Assembly (NCBI GenBank): GCA_964395915.1 | Contig: CAYNDB010000005.1 | Location: forward strand, 5,616-44,278 | From: an uncultured Nitrospinota bacterium | GTDB taxonomy: Bacteria; Nitrospinota_A; UBA7883; JAJRTC01 | DNA length: 38,663 bases | Direction: 5' to 3' | Shown here: positions 23,336-38,663 of the stretch, in pieces | Numbering within the stretch: position 1 is the first letter of the stretch | Layout of the letters: each line of letters begins with the position of its first letter | Made by a program: the position numbers and the translations under genes | Notes under the pieces: generated by a model | The model's input: only the letters and a program-made list of their open reading frames with translations | Told to the model about the DNA's origin: nothing | Databases searched by the model: none

Positions 23336-25474
23336 ATGAAAAAAGGCAAGATTATCGTCGTAGACGACGAGGATAATATTAGAGGAACCCTTCAGGAAAT
23401 CCTTTCCGACGAAGGGTATGAGGTCACCTGCGCCAAAGATGGAGAAACGGCCCTGCGAGTTTTCCAAAAAGAAGCTCCAGATGTCGTATTGCTGGATGTC
23501 TGGATCCCCGGCATCGACGGAATGCAGACGCTCAAAATGCTGAAAAATATCGACCCCGAGACAGAAATCATCATGATGAGCGGCCACGGCAGCATAGACA
23601 CGGCCGTAAAGGCCACAAAGCTTGGAGCTTATGATTTTATCGAGAAACCTTTCTCGCTGGAGTCTATCCTTCGTATCGTGGCAAAGGCGCTTAGAAGCCG
23701 TCATATCCGTCTTTCCAAAAAACAGTCTGGAGGGCAGAGCGCGGAAAATATGGAGCGAAGATTCCTCGGCTCATCACAAAGCGCAAAAAATACAAGAAAG
23801 CTTATACGGCAGGCCGCCGGTAACGATAACCCTACGCTGATCGTGGGGGAGCCGGGGTTGGGAAAAAAGTTTGCCGCAAGGGTAATTCACAATTTATCCG
23901 CTCGACGTGGCAAGCCTTTTGTGGAGCTGTCGTGCGCCACATTGACTGAAGCCATTCTGGCGTCCACCCTCTTGGGAAATGAAAGCGCCGACCAGGATAT
24001 TGATATATCTGATCTTGGACTTTCTTCCGGCGGCGTTATTTTTTTCGATCGAATCGACAAGCTTTCATCAAGAATGCAGGAGAAGCTTTTTCAAATATTA
24101 AAAAACCGTCGATTCAGAATTCCCGGGGAAGACTCAAACAAAACTTTTAACATAAGAGCAATCGCTTCTGTCACTTCAGATCGGAGCGGCGTTGAAATTG
24201 GCGATCTTAACGAGGATTTGCAAAAGTTTTTGGGCCAAAATCTGATAAAACTTACGCCATTAAGAGAGCGGAGAGACGACCTTCCAAAGTTCATAGAACA
24301 ATTTGTCGATGACCTTTGCGATGAACATGAAAAGGATATAGGTTCGGTAAACAAGGAAGCCCTGAAAACTTTGATGCAAGCTCCGTGGCCCGGAAATGTT
24401 CGACAACTTAAACAGGTGGTCGAATACGCTGTCCTGGCTTGTGACGGGCCGACGTTGTTAAAAAATCACCTGCCGCTGTCCGAGCTGGATATAGCCTATG
24501 AAAAAAGCGCTGCAAACGCTTTTGACGACATATATTTTACCCGGCTTAAAGACCTTCCTCTATCGCCTGGTCATAGTGGAAAACAGACAGAAAAACGAAA
24601 AGGAAAAGGGCTTCCACAAAAAACGCTTAAAGACTCCGTGGTGTTATGCGGACAGGGTCTTCACTCCGGCATCAAAACTGGAATGATCCTCTCCCCGCTG
24701 CCGCCGAATTCCGGAATTGTGTTTGGAGAGATCAGCACGGGGGACAGGGTGCCGGCTCTTTTGAAGAACGTGCGAAGCACAGAATACGCCACGACACTTT
24801 CCAACGGACGGGTAACGATTAAAACCATCGAGCATATAATGTCCGCCCTGCATAGTTACGGGGTCACCAACCTGCTGATTAAAATCGGCGACGAGGCGCC
24901 AATCATGGACGGCTCGGCCCTCGATTTTTGCCAGATTATCGAAAATAGCGGCGTTAAGGAACAGGATGATTTCATAGAAGAAGTCATTATCGATAAAAAG
25001 ATCTCTGTTGGCGACACGGAAAATGGACCTTCGCTTACCGTGGAGCCTTCCGATCGATTCTCCATACACTACTTTCTCGATTACCCCTCGCCTATCGGCA
25101 AACAGGAATATAAATATGTTTATGAATCGGGCGAAAAATATAAAGAGACCATAGCTCCGGCCCGCACCTTCGGTTTTTTACGCGACATAAAAAAGCTGGA
25201 AGAGGCGGGGCTTGCCAGCGGCGGGAAATTATCTAACGTTGTGTTGATAGATGACGAAAGGGTGGTAAACACACCATTGCGGTTTTCAAACGAAATGGCC
25301 CGGCATAAAATACTGGATCTTATAGGTGACCTGCATCTTCTCGGCAAGCCTATACGGGGTCATTTTACCGCAATGAAAAGCGGACATACGCAGAACATTG
25401 AGCTTACACAGAAAATTCTCGACTATGTGACGGAGTCTGAATCGAAAGTGGCTGAAAAACATGCCGTCTCCTGA
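23336..25474 (+). CDS. lpxC: Fusion protein: NtrX-like receiver + degenerate sigma54-activator AAA+ domain + UDP-3-O-acyl-GlcNAc deacetylase (LpxC)
   Basis: REC (VVDDE, LLDVWIPG, MMSGHG, FIEKPF); AAA+ remnants (GEPGLGKK, FFDRI, PLRERRDD, WPGNVRQL); from about 24617 LpxC (QKTL, GLHSG, TIEHIMSAL, PIMDGSA, IAPARTFGF, RHKILDLIGDL, KSGHTQN). Confidence 0.92.
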   Translation: MKKGKIIVVDDEDNIRGTLQEILSDEGYEVTCAKDGETALRVFQKEAPDVVLLDVWIPGIDGMQTLKMLKNIDPETEIIMMSGHGSIDTAVKATKLGAYDFIEKPFSLESILRIVAKALRSRHIRLSKKQSGGQSAENMERRFLGSSQSAKNTRKLIRQAAGNDNPTLIVGEPGLGKKFAARVIHNLSARRGKPFVELSCATLTEAILASTLLGNESADQDIDISDLGLSSGGVIFFDRIDKLSSRMQEKLFQILKNRRFRIPGEDSNKTFNIRAIASVTSDRSGVEIGDLNEDLQKFLGQNLIKLTPLRERRDDLPKFIEQFVDDLCDEHEKDIGSVNKEALKTLMQAPWPGNVRQLKQVVEYAVLACDGPTLLKNHLPLSELDIAYEKSAANAFDDIYFTRLKDLPLSPGHSGKQTEKRKGKGLPQKTLKDSVVLCGQGLHSGIKTGMILSPLPPNSGIVFGEISTGDRVPALLKNVRSTEYATTLSNGRVTIKTIEHIMSALHSYGVTNLLIKIGDEAPIMDGSALDFCQIIENSGVKEQDDFIEEVIIDKKISVGDTENGPSLTVEPSDRFSIHYFLDYPSPIGKQEYKYVYESGEKYKETIAPARTFGFLRDIKKLEEAGLASGGKLSNVVLIDDERVVNTPLRFSNEMARHKILDLIGDLHLLGKPIRGHFTAMKSGHTQNIELTQKILDYVTESESKVAEKHAVS

Positions 25475-33181: not shown

Positions 33182-33403
33182 AACTTTTAAATTTTTCCTC
33201 TATTTTTCATAAATATTTTGCGTATTGGCAAGCAAAGAGCCTAGCTTATTAACCGACTGAATTCAACCGTATTACGCTTTGGATAAAAACAACTTGCCAA
33301 AACATGTACCTTGGCTATAATTGCTTTTTATGTCTGGATCGGTTATTTCAACCAAGCTATCATTATAGCTCTTAATTTTCAATATTATAGAAAGATTGTT
33401 TTT

Positions 33404-34576
33404 ATGGGACGCATAAACTACCTGTTTACATCAGAATCTGTCTCCGAAGGACACCCCGATAAAATCAGTGACCAGATTTCCGACGCTGTGCTCGACGCGG
33501 TTATAGGACAGGATAACATGGCGAGAGTCGCATGTGAGACCTTTTGCACAACTGGCCTCGTGCTTGTTGGTGGGGAATATTCATGCGATCCGTCTGTCAA
33601 AATAGATATAGCGGAAATCGCTCGTGGTGTTGTAAAGGATATTGGATATAACGACTCTTCACTAGGGTTCGACTATAAATCGTGCGCCGTGTTAAACGCC
33701 ATGCACGAGCAATCCGCCGATATTGCGCAGGGAGTCGTCCGTGAAAAAGCGGAGGATCAGGGCGCGGGCGATCAGGGTATCATGTTCGGCTACGCCACAA
33801 ACGAAACGCCGGAGCTTATGCCTTTGCCGATCACATTGGCCCACAAGGTTCTTATTAAGCTTGCGGAGCTTAGGAAAAGCGGCGAGATGCCTTTTTTGCG
33901 GCCCGACAGCAAATCGCAGGTAACGGTCGAGTATACCAACAGAACACCGCACAAAATTGATACTGTTGTATTGTCAACTCAACACAGCGAAGACATATCT
34001 GAAAAAGATTTGGCGCGTGAAGTTATAGAAAAAGCCATAAAACCGATAATGCCTGAAGATCTTTTCGACGAAAAGAGGGTCAATTTCCATATCAACCCGA
34101 CCGGCAGGTTCGTTATCGGTGGGCCGCACGGAGACACGGGGCTTACAGGACGTAAAATCATCGTAGACACATACGGCGGCGTAGGCTCACACGGCGGCGG
34201 AGCTTTCTCCGGCAAAGACCCGAGCAAGGTGGACAGATCGGCTTCATACATGGCGCGATATGTCGCCAAAAACCTGGTCGCCGCCGGCATCATGGAAAAA
34301 TGCGAAGTCCAGCTCGCCTACGCCATCGGCGTCGCGGAGCCCGTGTCTGTGCTGGTCGATTCGTTCGGCACCCGTAAAATAGAGCAGGATAAAATTCACG
34401 AGATCGTGCGGGATAATTTTGACATGCGTCCATATGGAATCTTGAAAACGCTCGACCTGCGCCGTCCGATATTCCGCAAAACAGCGGCCTACGGTCATTT
34501 TGGCAGAGAGCTTCCGGAGTTCACATGGGAAAAAACCGACAAGGCCGACGATTTGCGGAAAGCGGCTGGGCTGTAG
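33404..34576 (+). CDS. metK: S-adenosylmethionine synthetase
   Basis: [49 protein letters not shown]; start moved to ATG 33404. Confidence 0.97.
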
Positions 34577-34802
34577 CTTCCGGTTTTCACATATTCCACG
34601 GCGGGCTCTTTCATGATTTCCTGCATGGCCCTCTTGCGCAAAGGCCTGTATTCCGTACGATTGTGTAAAATATAGCTAAAGTCATACGGGCTATTTACGC
34701 TTCGTGCAAGAATGTACTGGGCCGTTATATTTGTCTCGACCCGTGAAAGCCATCCCCGAAAATCAGACGGGAATAAACTTTGGTGAAATGAAAGAAAACG
34801 AA

Positions 34803-35447
34803 ATGTCCAAAGACAACATTGAACGTAAGGCCGTTTTCACTCCAGTAATATCGGGAGGCTCGCTTCCTATATCGGAGCTTAAAAAACTGGTCGACGTTAT
34901 GGAAAATGAAGGCGCGGAAGTTGTCAAACTCGGCGGGGAGGTGACCTTTGTGTGGGGGAATGGCGGCAGACCGCCGGAAGGTATCGAAGATCGCGCCGGC
35001 TTTAAAAAAATAGATTTCCGAAAAGGAGGGGTGCGTCCTGTGCGCATGTGCTCGGCGGAAATATTCTGCCCACGGTTCAACCTGCCTGTTTTATCTTTGG
35101 CGAAAAAAATAGACGAGCGATTCGGCGGCGAGGAGATGGAGTCCAAGATAACGATCGGCGTGGCTGGGTGCCAGCGATCCTGCAGTGAACCCGCCACTAA
35201 AGACATCGGGATTATAGCCTCTCCTGGCGGATACGAAATCCATATCGGCGGCGCGGCCGGTATGCGCCCGATGCTGGCGAAAAAAGTGGCCGTGGTTGAT
35301 TCGCAAGAAAAGGTATTGGAAATCATCGCCCGTATTGTCGACTTCATGCGTCGCAACGGCGACAACACTTCACGCCTCGGCTTGATTCTGGAATCGCAGG
35401 GAAGCGAGGAGCTGGTTAAAGAGTTGACTGGGTTAGACACGAAGTAA
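34803..35447 (+). CDS. Small nitrite/sulfite reductase 4Fe-4S/siroheme-domain protein
   Basis: C-X5-C (CSAEIFC) and GCQRSC motifs, KDIGII, IHIGGAAG; about 214 aa; alternative start at 34788. Confidence 0.75.
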   Translation: MSKDNIERKAVFTPVISGGSLPISELKKLVDVMENEGAEVVKLGGEVTFVWGNGGRPPEGIEDRAGFKKIDFRKGGVRPVRMCSAEIFCPRFNLPVLSLAKKIDERFGGEEMESKITIGVAGCQRSCSEPATKDIGIIASPGGYEIHIGGAAGMRPMLAKKVAVVDSQEKVLEIIARIVDFMRRNGDNTSRLGLILESQGSEELVKELTGLDTK

Positions 35448-35463
35448 GCCCCGCTATTCAGGA

Positions 35464-35533
35464 TGTCATGCCGGACTTGATCCGGCATCTCATTGGCTAA
35501 TTGGCGAGATCCCGGACCAAGTCCGGGATGACA
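35464..35533. repeat. Palindromic REP/RPE-like element (TGTCA...TGACA)
   Basis: TGTCATGCCGGACTTGATCCGGCATCTC-spacer-GAGATCCCGGACCAAGTCCGGGATGACA: two self-complementary halves in inverted orientation. Confidence 0.85.
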
Positions 35534-35534
35534 A

Positions 35535-36374
35535 TCAGGTAGACCCCAAAGACTCTATTTCAAGTTTATATTCAGTATCGCTGAGCTTAGCTTGCCTTAG
35601 CTCCACTTTGTTTTCCCGTTCCTGACACCATCCCTCAATCAACTTCCTGTCATCTTCGCTCATACGACAGCCAAATATTACCGCCACCAGCATTTCCGCA
35701 GGAAAGGTGAGCTTTTTATTTTTCACAGACAAAGCCATAGGCTCGTTTGGCTCCATCGATAAGAGGCGATACTCTTCCTCGTATTTCCAATCCGTAAATT
35801 TAGTTAACGCCGAATGGTACAAAATCTCCATATCGTCTGATTCCGTAATATCTAACGTTGGATATTTGTCGCGATAGTGAACCTTCAGAGCCCCTCCAAA
35901 GATGTCTTTGCTAGCGTCAAAGACTAAACAGAACCCTTTGTGTGAATCGGAGTAGTGAGACCAGACAAGAGGATTGGTCGCAGTCGCGCAAAGACTACAG
36001 ACACGATATTTTTCATGAAGGTTCGACCAGTACAGTTCTTTGAATTCTCTTGCCAACTCTTCCGCTTCCTCCTGCGTATGATTTGCTAACCATACTTCAT
36101 CTTCTTCTGGTGTGGTTTCTGGGTTGGCGAGGCGAATTAGTTTTAAATATTTTATTTTATAGTCTGCGTCACTGATATCACCAATCACCATATTGGGTCG
36201 GAATTCGTGTGGATCGTTTAAATCAATTGGACTTGGGAAGTGTAGCTCATTGGCCGAAAAAATACGCTCAACCCTGGGAAGTTTATCTAAAACCAGATCA
36301 TTATTAGAGTCCCGCGGAATAGACCGGAACTTATAAAGTTCCTTTACTTCTAAAGTCTCAATAGCTGTTTTCAT
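35535..36374 (-). CDS. DUF2971 domain-containing protein
   Basis: LYKFRS, LNDPHE, NPLVWSHYSDSHKGFCLVF, TKFTDWKYEEEYR, VIFGCRM; ATG at 36374. Confidence 0.82.
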   Translation of the reverse strand: MKTAIETLEVKELYKFRSIPRDSNNDLVLDKLPRVERIFSANELHFPSPIDLNDPHEFRPNMVIGDISDADYKIKYLKLIRLANPETTPEEDEVWLANHTQEEAEELAREFKELYWSNLHEKYRVCSLCATATNPLVWSHYSDSHKGFCLVFDASKDIFGGALKVHYRDKYPTLDITESDDMEILYHSALTKFTDWKYEEEYRLLSMEPNEPMALSVKNKKLTFPAEMLVAVIFGCRMSEDDRKLIEGWCQERENKVELRQAKLSDTEYKLEIESLGST

Positions 36375-36376
36375 AT

Positions 36377-36484
36377 TGTCATTGCGAACGCAGTGAAGCA
36401 ATCCCGTTGGGTGAAGTGAGATAAACGCAAATCATTTTTCTCCCATTGGGATCGTCACGGTCGCTTCACTCCCTCACGATGACA
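36377..36484. repeat. Second palindromic REP/RPE-like element (TGTCATTGCGA...GATGACA family)
   Basis: TGTCATTGCGAACGCAGTGAAGCAATCCC...GGGATCGTCACGGTCGCTTCACTCCCTCACGATGACA. Confidence 0.8.
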
Positions 36485-36495
36485 CTTTGGGCGCC

Positions 36496-36535
36496 GGGAT
36501 TGCCACACGTGACGAAGTTGCGCGTGGCAATGACA
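36496..36535. repeat. Half-copy of the same palindromic family directly after the ahcY stop; may act as a terminator
   Basis: GGGATTGCCACACGTGACGAAGTTGCGCGTGGCAATGACA; ATTGCCAC/GTGGCAAT stem, ends in TGACA. Confidence 0.7.
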
Positions 36536-36540
36536 AAAAC

Positions 36541-37959
36541 CTAATACCGATAATGATCCGGTTTATATGGGCCTTCGACAGGGACGCCGATATAGTCCGC
36601 CTGATCCTTTGAAAGCGTCGTGAGTTTCACGCCAATTCTCGCAAGATGCAACCGGGCAACTTCTTCGTCCAGCTTTTTCGACAACGTATAGACGCCGACC
36701 TTATGGTCGTTTTCCCACAAATCGATTTGCGCCAAAGTCTGGTTGGTGAAAGAGTTGCTCATGACGAAGCTGGGATGCCCCGTGGCGCAACCTAAATTCA
36801 CAAGCCTGCCCTCGGCAAGGATGTATATAGAATGGCCGTCTTCGTCGAAGGTATACATGTCGACCTGCGGCTTGATGTTGGTAACTTTTGCGCCAGAGAA
36901 ATTCTCCAGCTTGCTCATCTCAATCTCGTTGTCGAAATGGCCGATGTTGCAGACAATCGCCTGATCTTTCATCTTCCGCATATGCTCAAGCCGGATGATA
37001 TCTTTGTTGCCGGTTGTGGTGACGTATATGTCAGCTTCGGCAAGGGCGTCCTCGATCGGTTTCACCTCATATCCTTCCATAGACGCCTGCAACGCGCAGA
37101 TCGGATCGATCTCTGTGACGATAACACGCGCCCCAAGCCCGACAAAAGATTGTGCGCAGCCTTTGCCAACGTCGCCATATCCACACACTACAGCCACTTT
37201 ACCTGCGATCATAACGTCTGTGGCGCGTTTGATCCCGTCCACGAGAGATTCGCGGCAACCATAAAGGTTGTCGAACTTTGATTTCGTAACGGAGTCGTTA
37301 ACGTTGATGGCTGGAACCAGAAGCTCTCCCTTTTCCATCATCTGATACAGCCTGTGTACTCCGGTGGTGGTCTCTTCCGAGACACCTTTCCATTCTTTGA
37401 CAACGTTGCCCCAGAAACCCGGCTCATTTTTAAGCGTGTCTTTTAGAAGGTTGTTGATTATCTTAAGCTCCGCGTTATCGGTTGGCTCGTCGAGAATAGA
37501 CGCGTCGCTCTCCGCCGCATAGCCGCGATGGATTACGAGGGTTGCGTCTCCGCCATCGTCCACAATAAGCTGCGGACCTTTGCCGCCCGGGAACGTTAGA
37601 GCCTGTTTGGTGCACCACCAGTATTCTTCCAGCGTCTCCCCTTTCCACGCAAATACAGGCACGCCTGTGGCCGCTATCGCTGCGGCGGCGTGATCTTGCG
37701 TCGAGAATATGTTGCACGAAACCCAGCGCACGTCCGCGCCAAGCTCCACAAGCGTTTCTATCAGAACAGCGGTCTGTATTGTCATGTGCAAGCTGCCCAT
37801 GATCCTTACGCCTTTTAGCGGCTTTGTTTTGCCATACTTCTCACGCGTGGCCACAAGGCCCGGCATTTCGTGTTCGGCTATATTTATTTCCTTACGGCCA
37901 AAGTCGGCCAGAGAGATATCCGCTACCTTGTAGTCGGCTGTTTCCGATGCGACAGTCAC
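36541..37959 (-). CDS. ahcY: Adenosylhomocysteinase
   Basis: [77 protein letters not shown]; GTG start with AAGGAG RBS. Confidence 0.97.
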
Positions 37960-38032
37960 TTTTAGTTCTCCTTAAATTGATCTAATCTATTAGTATAACG
38001 GTAACATTTTATCAAGCAACCCGAAGAAAAAC

Positions 38033-38663
38033 ATGGCTATAAAAGAAACGTTGGGAGCCCCAAAAGGCTTTATCTACCTAATAAGAAGCATTAAGATTGT
38101 GTTTTCCGACTGGAAAGTGTTCCGCCTTGCCATCATGCCGATGCTGGTGAACATTCTGCTTTTCGTTGGTTTCTTTTTCGCTTTCAACTATTTTTCATAT
38201 GAAATCTCATCGAGAGTGTTCGAAGAGTCTACCCAGGTGTGGTATTGGTACGCCCTGTCGTGGCTGATCGGCGTGGCGCTTTTTATTGTTTCCATTTTTA
38301 TCGTGCTGTTCGGTTTTGTGGTGGTCGGCCTCATCGTGGCGGCGCCTTTCAACGATATGCTGGCGGCGGCGGTGGAAAAAAAGGTGACCGGAACGGTAAA
38401 AGAAACCGGTATGTCGATATGGGGGCTTGTAAAATATACCGTTAAAAACGAGATTCGTAAAATGGCGGTGATAATTTTGGTTCAGGGATCGCTTTTCCTG
38501 GTCAACTTCATCCCCGGTGTCGGGCAGATGATATTCGTCGTGGTCAGCCCTGCATTCCTGGCTTTAGTGATGGCGTATGAATTCACAGGCTATACTCTGG
38601 ACAGGCGAGGGTTATCATTCAGCGAAAAACGAAAATATCTGACATCAAAATTCGGGTTGTCGA
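38033..38663 (+). CDS. CysZ/EI24-family membrane protein (3' truncated by the window edge)
   Basis: Manual translation from ATG 38033: MAIKETLGAPKGFIYLIRS...LAIMPMLVNILLF...LIVAAPFNDMLAAAVEKKVTG; the AAPFN motif and hydrophobic pattern are characteristic; absent from the ORF track because it has no stop in the window. Confidence 0.75.
   Translation, partial: MAIKETLGAPKGFIYLIRSIKIVFSDWKVFRLAIMPMLVNILLFVGFFFAFNYFSYEISSRVFEESTQVWYWYALSWLIGVALFIVSIFIVLFGFVVVGLIVAAPFNDMLAAAVEKKVTGTVKETGMSIWGLVKYTVKNEIRKMAVIILVQGSLFLVNFIPGVGQMIFVVVSPAFLALVMAYEFTGYTLDRRGLSFSEKRKYLTSKFGLS

Follow-up and report, generated by a model that had tools for sequence, protein, structure and literature searches.

Why is a single gene of the DUF2971 family, enclosed on both sides by palindromic repeats, located among the housekeeping genes metK and ahcY and a small NIR_SIR-like gene in the genome of an uncultured hydrothermal-vent bacterium, and have these repeats to be seen as the borders of a cassette or as ordinary constituents of the genome? 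The window, i.e. the whole stretch of 38.6 kb that was analysed, contains the features listed in Table 1. The original prediction described a coding sequence filling the whole gap between two TGTCA...TGACA elements, and direct reading of the sequence confirmed this: the 8-mer ATGACAAT occupies positions 35528-35535 and overlaps the stop codon (35535-35537) by one base, while ATTGTCAT at 36375-36382 directly adjoins the ATG (36372-36374). Expressed in repeat heads, the coding sequence is limited 1 nt past the TGTCAT of unit A2, which points at the stop codon, and 2 nt short of that of unit B1, which points at the ATG. The longest open reading frame (35535-36401, minus strand) opens with TTG, but the ATG at 36374 was taken as the true start, since its methionine is common to 16 of 16 aligned homologues and two homologues (P0005 and P0014) have short extensions preceding it. 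The stop position matches 15 homologues in the alignment.

Table 1. Genes and repeat units around the DUF2971 gene. Genes were called with a home-made ORF and codon-score caller, thus start positions other than that of the DUF2971 gene are approximate.
Feature	Position	Strand	Remarks
metK (S-adenosylmethionine synthetase)	33311..34576	+	Pfam S-AdoMet_synt N, M and C domains
Small NIR_SIR-domain gene (sulfite/nitrite reductase 4Fe-4S-like)	34704..35447	+	Pfam NIR_SIR, E 3.2e-18
Unit A1	35464..35491	+	TGTCAT head, GCCGGA/TCCGGC hairpin, ATCTC tail
Unit A2	35506..35533	-	Forms an inverted pair with A1, tails inward and heads outward
DUF2971 / PDC-S31 gene	35535..36374	-	279 aa; predicted ADP-ribosyltransferase fold, anti-phage candidate, single-gene
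Unit B1	36377..36405	+	TGTCAT-TGCGAACGCAGTGAAGCA-ATCCC
B1-B2 doublet spacer	36406..36447	.	Compared by eye with C63, C6 and C61
Unit B2	36448..36484	-	GGGAT...CACGATGACA; pattern match
Unit B3	36496..36535	-	8-bp stem; strict hairpin scan C5 42113-42149
ahcY (S-adenosylhomocysteine hydrolase)	36541..37959	-	Pfam AdoHcyase, E 2.2e-152; upstream of DUF2971, same strand
cysZ-like (EI24/CysZ) gene	38033..38662	+	Pfam EI24; conserved on the opposite side of ahcY

The protein was matched by the Pfam model DUF2971 (PF11185) with 27.7 bits (cut-off 22) over residues 138-204, and by the PADLOC model for PDC-S31 (PDLC04990) with an E value of 1.5e-48 over residues 9-274, that is along its full length. 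NCBIfam contained no family for it, and no publication was found under the name 'PDC-S31'. Features of ADP-ribosyltransferases are present in the alignment, with E199, E201, Y141 and Y198 invariant in 16 of 16 sequences. A conserved tyrosine, an ExE motif and an ADP-ribosyltransferase-like core of DUF2971, as well as a sequence similarity to DarT and AbiGi, are described in the available part of PMC12522546, and judged by sequence E199-x-E201 fits this motif. The AlphaFold model (pLDDT 81, pTM 0.80) had its best structural matches in four DarT entries of VIA-align, namely 7yk3_C (Z 7.4, rmsd 4.3, 144 aligned residues), 7omv (Z 6.6), 7omu (Z 6.4) and 8baq (Z 5.5), and the Tpt1 structure 7yw4_A reached Z 7.1, values that are middling on the calibration of the tool. 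Among the 50 matches listed, the titles identified at least 20 as proteins with an ADP-ribosyltransferase fold. The likeness to DarT seen here is structural only; a profile of the 16 sequences found no chain among the PDB sequences at E < 0.09. Foldseek gave no match to the PDB at E <= 0.001. Homeodomain matches in the profile search (E 0.09-0.16) were at chance level. The protein differs from DarT also by a large helical insert (residues ~65-122), and the locus differs from DarTG by its neighbours, ahcY and the NIR_SIR-like gene, with no DarG-like macrodomain among the 32 genes of the window. According to the available part of PMC11381338, Aristaios, a single-gene DUF2971 system of a Lactococcus plasmid, has anti-phage activity. 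The suspicion of a defence or toxin-like cargo gained support from the PDC-S31 match, the modelled fold and the activity of Aristaios: the protein is an abortive-infection candidate of the PDC-S31 or Aristaios kind, with a DarT-like ADP-ribosyltransferase fold as predicted from the model. Upon phage infection it would ADP-ribosylate nucleic acid or protein.

The gene has a foreign-looking composition. Its G+C content of 42.5 % corresponds to the 7th percentile of the 2402 called genes, and the adjoining genes are at the 88th and 91st percentile. The NIR_SIR-like gene, transcribed convergently with the DUF2971 gene, has a native G+C content (51.8 %, 88th percentile); it is the sole small copy in this genome, and its homologues in five relatives are on different contigs from ahcY. 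DUF2971 genes were present in 7 of 61 genomes, this one included, and homologues were found on 296 plasmid and 10 phage records. The best homologue among the relatives had an identity of 30 % and was situated at a different locus, and the sole genome of the same family (87 % complete) yielded none. The closest homologues, with identities of 78 % (P0003), 64 % (P0004) and 53-57 % (P0005-P0007), are on contigs of only about 1-1.5 kb; short contigs predominate in that collection, so that their shortness says nothing in favour of flanking repeats. The identity of ahcY is 73-88 % in 12 relatives of the same order, and the cysZ-like gene adjoins it in 6 of the 17 relatives' loci. Downstream of ahcY the content differed in all 16 informative relatives (17 examined), and included genes for Fic, a nucleoside transporter, OmdA, DUF4145, BTLCP with LapD and NmrA/DUF2867 as well as hemC and eno. 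Neither a DUF2971 gene nor TGTCAT-type repeats were found downstream of ahcY in any of the 17 loci. Of the fixed slot that had been proposed, the varied cargo downstream of ahcY was retained, but the far side is not fixed, with metK beyond the cargo in two (G001 and G005) of three relatives fetched over a longer range. The 32 called genes of the window include no transposase or integrase; the three Phage_integrase matches of the genome, tyrosine recombinases, are on other contigs (C26, C31 and C59).

The repeats on both sides belong to one family that is distributed over the whole genome and mostly flanks native genes, including polA, hence they do not qualify as two different elements marking the borders of a cassette. 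A unit is built from the head TGTCAT, a G+C-rich hairpin and the tail ATCYC, and several hairpin sequence types have this head and tail in common. In the left element, A1, of which the genome holds about 34 near-copies, and A2 constitute a 28-nt inverted pair of 89 % complementarity that folds into one long hairpin (-46.9 kcal/mol, z -5.5). In the right element (36376-36536), the terminal inverted repeats are perfect over 10 nt; it was read by eye as the three hairpin units B1 (+), B2 (-) and B3 (-), and folds with -63.2 kcal/mol (z -3.8). Copies of B1 are located at C63:5697, C149:2255 and C6:41818, and the unit-spacer-unit layout of B1 and B2 was found again by eye at other loci. Unit B2 is nearly unique in the assembly, the only other match being one of 86 % over 37 nt (C61), and the head of B3 is 5 nt away from the ahcY stop codon. 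No Rfam family was above threshold; matches to mir-193 and U4 were sub-threshold and at chance level.

A strict hairpin scan detected 67 units in the genome versus 5 in the reversed-genome control, and exact pattern matches numbered 41 versus 0. Of the 2587 intergenic or contig-edge regions, 83 contain repeats, 130 of the 181 merged units are intergenic, and inverted '+-' pairs are numerous, the partners often joined by their tails with the heads pointing outward. A bias towards stop codons was observed: 26 of 86 stop-facing distances were 10 nt or less, but only about 9 of 70 start-facing ones. Contact with a stop codon is not rare, as 4 of 57 stop-facing heads are within 3 nt of it; among the start-facing heads this holds for 1 of 42, the DUF2971 gene only, in a test chosen after seeing the case. 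Repeats on both sides were found for 11 genes, among them polA, a radical-SAM/BATS gene and a prepilin peptidase gene, and 4 of the 11 are of low G+C content (below the 13th percentile). Double flanking is thus not rare, and it is about four times as frequent as the 2.5 genes expected from independent placement. Genes flanked on one side have a G+C content slightly above that of the remaining genes, thus most repeat-flanked genes are native.

On this evidence, the locus probably represents a horizontally acquired single-gene defence candidate beside ordinary genome-wide REP/REPIN-like repeats, at a rearrangement-prone spot 3' of ahcY. The repeats would have accumulated independently of the arrival of the gene. 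Cluster A is placed where the NIR_SIR-like and DUF2971 genes converge, behind both stop codons, and cluster B, located 5 nt past the ahcY stop codon, takes up all of the short spacer as far as the ATG of DUF2971. The inverse 8-mers are simply conserved repeat heads, pointing at both neighbours because the doublets have their heads outward. The exact contact at both ends of an open reading frame of native length argues against this reading, as independent insertion does not predict it unless the original spacers comprised only a few bases.

The contact at both native ends would be explained if a REP/REPIN cluster existed beforehand between the NIR_SIR-like gene and ahcY and acted as recombination substrate for a promoter-less open reading frame. 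In this case the repeats would be the cause of the exact bracket, and the spot would be a cassette-like, integrase-free site for gain and loss of one gene, driven by some enzyme or by short-homology recombination. Every repeat unit detected in the window falls in the two gaps beside the DUF2971 gene, and a second Abi gene of low G+C content (AbiJ/Abi_C, 38 %, C11:5126-6094) is bracketed by the same family, with its last five codons and the stop supplied by a repeat unit. The family is patchy in the relatives (14 of 33 genomes), thus donor and recipient could share short homology. However, the repeat-flanked genes are mostly native, the differing cargoes of the relatives are without repeats, and a population of empty slots is missing, as the assembly holds only two other head-to-head repeat junctions. 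In 105 loci with DUF2971 homologues elsewhere (431,545 bases), 15 repeat-pattern matches versus 8 in the control were obtained, none of them hairpin-like or bracketing, although this comparison is weak for close relatives because every homologue there is at most 49 % identical. The Endoriftia contig L048 carries a diverged, split homologue only and says nothing about flanks.

Gene-less alleles that end in the repeat clusters may exist. In the metagenome run X1, which like X2 and X5 contains this organism, one contig with a depth of 5.6 joins position 35535 to 36447, and in run X3, from a relative diverged by 5-9 %, one contig joins 35436 to 36440 and the DUF2971 gene is uncovered. The gene-less forms implied by these joints would retain B2 and B3. 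In favour of such alleles, the right-hand sequence of the joints is nearly unique in the genome and no such adjacency occurs elsewhere in the assembly. Each joint comes from one contig only, the shorter side covering 28-30 nt, with matching at 90 % likeness; joints of this type often arise from repeats or foreign organisms, and the intervening letters are unspecified. That the gene is uncovered in X3 and in part in X2 does not by itself show its absence. Both joints are weak hints at gain and loss through a pre-existing cluster, but that in X1 cuts the B1-B2 doublet within its spacer and is thus not a clean repeat-to-repeat event. The exchange mediated by repeats, as envisaged in the original prediction, is at variance with the repeat-free cargoes and homologue loci; recombination at a pre-existing cluster appears unlikely for this gene, and cassette-like capture is unproven. 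The generalization that TGTCAT clusters are landing pads for promoter-less single-gene defence ORFs (DUF2971, AbiJ-like), with junctions at the repeat heads, we consider quite unlikely.

A mobile unit would be another route to the bracket. The open reading frame could form a non-autonomous element with its adjacent units, which would be either A2 plus B1 or everything from B2 to A2 as read on the strand of the gene. Its movement would depend in trans on whichever enzyme spreads the TGTCAT units, be it a RAYT-like Y1 transposase or a different nuclease. By their hairpin and conserved 5' hexamer the units are similar to REP or IS200/IS605-type substrates, and along the DUF2971 strand the open reading frame has hairpins of direct orientation to both sides, B2/B3 and A2. 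RAYT genes are themselves flanked by REPs. Y1_Tnp matches were present in five of five repeat-rich relatives, but none was found in this genome, which is 91 % complete and consists of 185 contigs, several ending in repeats. In the relatives the Y1_Tnp genes are not directly flanked; the nearest units are 296 and 593 nt away (two of eight loci). With none here and unflanked genes there, the association of a RAYT with the repeat is not established. A small GIY-YIG gene of this genome is flanked by units, with its stop codon provided by a repeat head. This candidate was dropped, as flanking units occur at only 2 of 12 GIY-YIG loci and its presence does not co-vary with the repeat counts (G016 with 23 units and no match, G026 with no units and two matches). 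No RAYT or transposase accompanies the DUF2971 gene. The DUF2971 gene is single-copy in this genome, a second copy of the composite of open reading frame and repeats was not found, nor was a target-site duplication or flanking direct repeat around cluster B. Mobilization as a composite is most improbable.

The short interval between ahcY and the DUF2971 ATG also bears on expression. Neither a sigma-70-like promoter on the strand of the gene nor a Shine-Dalgarno core was found in it, as had been noted before; promoter-like and terminator-like sites were not more frequent than in shuffled sequence. The missing Shine-Dalgarno core carries no weight as a peculiarity, since the 4-mer core was present for only 521 of the 1561 longer genes (33 %) of the genome. 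With an acquired gene beside independently accumulated repeats, the gene would be transcribed via read-through from ahcY across cluster B. Beyond that, cluster B might be kept as a putative 5' leader, with hairpins damping the read-through and with the ATG of the repeat head opening an upstream ORF of three codons, the TGA of which overlaps the DUF2971 ATG (ATGA); a toxic protein would be held at low, coupled expression. The start is indeed preceded by ATGACAAT and then ATGA, cluster B is free of promoter-like sites on the strand of the gene, and its RNA structure is strong. The same units are found at more than 80 other intergenic sites where no such role is implied, no RNA run with this stretch was found, and we judge a leader function very unlikely. 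It is compatible with the other explanations, hence no alternative to them.

The locus is a clean, well-delimited case of a single anti-phage candidate acquired amid housekeeping genes, and it documents a REP-like family in which one head, TGTCAT, is combined with different types of hairpin. If the hints of repeat involvement are true, REP-type repeats would mediate gain and loss of defence genes, linking two common genome features that are studied separately.

Among the known defence systems, Aristaios and PDC-S31 share with this locus a DUF2971 protein that stands alone, is ~280-316 aa long and folds like an ADP-ribosyltransferase, without partner gene and on accessory DNA. In contrast to Aristaios, the gene is chromosomal here, among housekeeping genes and without promoter space of its own, and the two are likened by family, not by sequence alignment. 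A resemblance of the repeats to the Rickettsia RPE is generic and does not extend beyond the palindromic nature of both. MITEs, RPEs and cluster B with its perfect termini are alike in being small, non-coding and palindromic and in ending in inverted repeats; yet a target-site duplication of the MITE kind was not seen at cluster B, and RPEs have a size of 100-150 nt and insert in frame within genes, whereas the units here are of 25-40 nt and mostly intergenic. With integron cassettes, the locus has in common a single open reading frame that has no promoter and takes up all the room from one structured imperfect palindrome to the next, and a defence-type cargo. The integron-like character was nevertheless not upheld: IntI, attI, Pc and a cassette array are absent here, the contig has no integrase, the repeats are on both sides of the gene, at more than 80 unrelated sites and next to core genes, and they end in TGTCAT/ATCYC without the attC core, which is GTTRRRY. 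REPs have a GTAG-type motif, and from these the present family departs by its TGTCAT head and its several hairpin types; no RAYT was found in the 91 %-complete genome, nor one directly flanked by units in the relatives. The family resembles the RAYT-mobilised REP and REPIN sequences as characterized in the available parts of PMC3116915 and PMC3337134: its imperfect palindromes are short and rich in G+C, have a 5' motif that is conserved, and are extragenic, with tens to hundreds of copies, arranged in inverted pairs that form a long hairpin, biased towards the 3' ends of genes and patchy among relatives.

The DUF2971 gene, a single-copy gene of the source genome, lies between ahcY and a gene with a NIR_SIR domain, and no partner gene was found at this locus. 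The exact bracketing of its coding sequence by palindromic elements had been correctly placed and described from the sequence: the stop codon (35535-35537) has one base in common with ATGACAAT (35528-35535), and ATTGTCAT (36375-36382) directly adjoins the ATG (36372-36374). The start methionine is common to 16 of 16 aligned homologues (45-80 % identical), two of which carry short extensions N-terminal of it, and all C-termini agree to within two residues. A comparison of base composition, proposed with the original prediction, revealed a foreign-looking gene: its G+C content of 42.5 % and GC3 of 44 % fall on the 7th and 6th percentiles, and the G+C contents of the two neighbours on the 88th and 91st. 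DUF2971 is present in seven of 61 genomes, the source genome counted; the best match among the relatives is 30 % identical and situated at a different locus, and the sole genome of the same family (87 % complete) yielded none. The closest proteins in a large collection (78, 64 and 57 % identical) are all metagenomic. We lean towards an acquired gene of the type of Aristaios (a single-gene anti-phage system) or PDC-S31 (a PADLOC candidate system), with short flanking spacers filled by repeats that prefer stop codons. A foreign defence-type gene would have been acquired beside ahcY, and genome-wide REP/REPIN-like units, drawn to stop codons, would have filled the spacers.

Coordinates of the DUF2971 gene, its flanking repeat elements and two further genes with flanking units (window positions unless a contig of the source genome, G000, is named)
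Feature	Position	Strand	Remarks
DUF2971 ORF	35535-36401	-	start = ATG at 36374
Left element, 28-nt inverted arms (A1, A2; cluster A)	35464-35491 and 35506-35533		arms 89 % complementary
Right element (cluster B)	36376-36536		perfect 10-nt termini
Unit B1	36377-36405	+	by eye
Unit B2	36448-36484	-	by eye
Unit B3	36496-36535	-	by eye
Locus of second Abi gene (322 aa)	G000:C11:4844-6148 (L163)		Abi_C E 4e-19; PADLOC AbiJ E 4e-24; G+C 38 %
Locus of small GIY-YIG nuclease gene	G000:C68:1-600 (L133)		ATG at 145; TGTCAT units flank

In all units, a G+C-rich stem-loop stands between a TGTCAT head and an ATCYC tail. Searching with one unit (blastn) gave 34 distinct near-copies in the genome (2.52 Mb, 185 contigs). 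A strict scan, which required GTCAT followed by at least 5 stem pairs and ATC, yielded 67 units versus 5 in a reversed-genome control, an exact IUPAC pattern 41 matches versus 0 in its control, and ATTGTCAT was counted 159 times versus 40 times in the control. Further hairpin types with identical head and tail (CCCGCG, CCCGGCC, CCTGAGCGAAG, TGCGAAC) were obtained by nhmmer profile search and with a less stringent pattern. The merged sets comprise 181 units, 130 of them outside the gene calls of a home-made caller (2402 genes, 89.7 % coding), and the extragenic units are spread over 83 of the 2587 intergenic or contig-edge regions. Contigs starting within a unit (C65:6-31, C68:7-31, C77:1-31, C92:5-29, C147:15-34) indicate that the assembly breaks at the repeats, thus the true copy number lies above the count. 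Among the relatives the distribution is patchy: 14 of 33 genomes had the pattern (G002 29, G019 24 and G016 23 matches) and 19 had none. The TGTCAT units behave like REP/REPIN-type elements; a RAYT, the usual partner of such elements, was not found in the source genome (91 % complete). Y1_Tnp matches were present in five of five repeat-rich relatives, not directly flanked by units. The idea of cassette boundaries gave way to ordinary REP/REPIN-like elements spread over the genome.

Folded, the left element forms a single long hairpin (-46.9 kcal/mol, z -5.5), and the right element reads by eye as three hairpin units, of which the B1-spacer-B2 architecture recurs on contigs C63, C6 and C61. Tail-to-tail pairing with the heads outward, as in A1/A2, is frequent; such a doublet aims one head at each neighbouring gene, hence the inverse 8-mers beside the DUF2971 gene. 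The units prefer the 3' ends of genes: a distance of at most 10 nt was seen in 26 of 86 stop-facing cases, compared with about 9 of 70 start-facing ones. When the exact coordinates of the heads are used, 4 of 57 stop-facing heads are no more than 3 nt from a stop codon. Cluster A follows the stops at which DUF2971 and the NIR_SIR-like gene converge, cluster B begins 5 nt past the ahcY stop, and both positions are typical for the family. A landing pad, in which the repeats mediated the insertion of the DUF2971 gene, seems unlikely to us. It could draw on several unusual features of the bracketing, all picked post hoc and dependent on approximate gene starts: 4 of the 11 genes with units on both sides are low in G+C, the start codon of DUF2971 is the sole one within 3 nt of a head (1 of 42 start-facing cases), and every unit detected in the 38.6-kb window sits in the two gaps adjoining this gene. 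The doubly flanked genes, 11 versus 2.5 expected under independent placement of the occupied gaps, include polA, a radical-SAM/BATS enzyme, a prepilin peptidase, an M48-like peptidase and a PEP-CTERM protein, and genes flanked on one side have a G+C content slightly above that of the remaining genes, thus bracketing is no mark of cargo. One of the four low-G+C genes is the AbiJ-type gene, situated between ffh and an ATP-synthase-like cluster (the cluster by eye), and its last five codons and stop come from the downstream unit; 5' of the gene two units lie within a larger inverted repeat of ~30 nt. In the GIY-YIG gene, the TGA within a repeat head is the stop codon, and the array 5' of it (A1-like, B2-like and a third unit) resembles the arrangement of the window minus the DUF2971 gene. 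Across the relatives, 2 of 12 GIY-YIG loci had such flanks.

The 1.5 kb downstream of ahcY were compared in 17 relatives, of which 16 were informative, one locus stopping after 154 nt. Gene content varied in essentially all 16: Fic, a nucleoside transporter, OmdA/YdeI, DUF4145, BTLCP plus LapD, NmrA/DUF2867, a ligase C-terminus, hemC, eno, sensor kinases and several unknowns were found there, and neither DUF2971 nor TGTCAT units occurred in these 16 stretches. Past the cargo, metK follows in G001 and G005 and is absent within 8.6 kb in G003. Varied contents free of units and the inconstant metK make this position, in these relatives, a general synteny break at the ahcY 3' end and no fixed two-sided slot for exchangeable repeat-bounded cassettes. 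Transposase, integrase or phage genes were not present in the window, and the three tyrosine recombinases of the genome are all on other contigs. Of the original prediction, a foreign defence-like cargo at a variable position has stood; the fixed slot and repeat-bounded cargoes have not, and nothing of an integron was found with the gene. Several side observations concern this region. Between ahcY and cysZ, G001, G003 and G005 carry an ORF of ~240 aa (L024 10432-11157, L026 9936-10673, L025 10104-10826) with, by eye, an XRE-type helix-turn-helix-like N-terminus; the gap in the source genome measures just 73 nt (37960-38032) and lacks it. Upstream of the Fic gene of the same-family relative G001, several copies of AATACCAAT / ATTGGTA in both orientations (L024 8730-8900, towards ahcY) may form an operator-like array. 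DUF4145 domains are often associated with restriction or defence genes, and the DUF4145 gene of the repeat-rich G016 (L153 165-716), which has no flanking TGTCAT units, is possibly another defence cargo at the same position. Elsewhere in the window, in one uninterrupted 712-aa ORF (23336-25474, +), a complete LpxC domain (residues 428-695) occurs together with a sigma-54 activator AAA+ domain and a response-regulator receiver, either as an unusual fusion or as two genes read through.

Part of the stretch is present in five public sequencing runs from four studies; wherever an organism is named for a run, it is a hydrothermal-vent metagenome. In runs X1, X2 and X5, contigs connect the gene to cluster A or B1 with 0-6 differences. 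Two contigs lack the gene: one in X1 (depth 5.6) joins 35535 to 36447 with 28 nt on its short side, and one in X3, from a relative showing 5-9 % differences, joins 35436 to 36440 with 30 nt on its short side. Each joint rests on one contig at 90 % likeness, the bases between the sides are not given, and the tool warns that such joints are often due to repeats or other organisms. Unit B2, to the right of both joints, is nearly unique in the genome and this adjacency occurs nowhere else in the assembly, thus gene-less alleles retaining B2 and B3 are possible, as leads only. Cluster B is structured as RNA (fold z -3.8) and contains neither a promoter-like site on the strand of the gene nor an SD core; this is weak evidence, since a 4-mer SD core precedes just 33 % of the longer genes. 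Transcription likely proceeds by read-through from ahcY across cluster B. The coding strand (36363-36382, -) reads ATGACAAT then ATGA, and the ATG of the repeat head opens a 3-codon frame (ATG ACA ATA TGA) whose TGA overlaps the DUF2971 ATG.

The Pfam DUF2971 match of the protein only slightly exceeds the cut-off; the PDC-S31 model covers residues 9-274 (E 1.5e-48). Distant homologues were found in 296 plasmid records, many SSU5/pHCM2-like, and 10 phage records. The AlphaFold model from the 16-sequence alignment (pLDDT 81, pTM 0.80) gave no significant match with Foldseek. An exhaustive VIA-align search, with Z values middling on the tool's own calibration, was headed by DarT (7yk3_C, Z 7.4, rmsd 4.3, 144 aligned; 7omv, Z 6.6; 7omu, Z 6.4; 8baq, Z 5.5) and Tpt1 (7yw4_A, Z 7.1), followed by many more proteins with the ADP-ribosyltransferase (ART) fold. 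A large helical insert (residues ~65-122; gene at 35535-36374, -) weakly matches three-helix DNA-binding modules (homeodomain sequences, E 0.09-0.16; MerR N-domain and Fun30/Fft3 helices, Z about 4) and may serve to bind nucleic acid. Two glutamates, E199 and E201, do not vary across the alignment. A published survey (PMC12522546) groups DUF2971 with the ARTs and describes a conserved Tyr and an ExE motif, and the structural matches agree with this placement. They also agree with Aristaios, a stand-alone DUF2971 gene reported to act by abortive infection (PMC11381338); together with the PDC-S31 match and the ART-type fold, this precedent supports the predicted defence- or toxin-like cargo.
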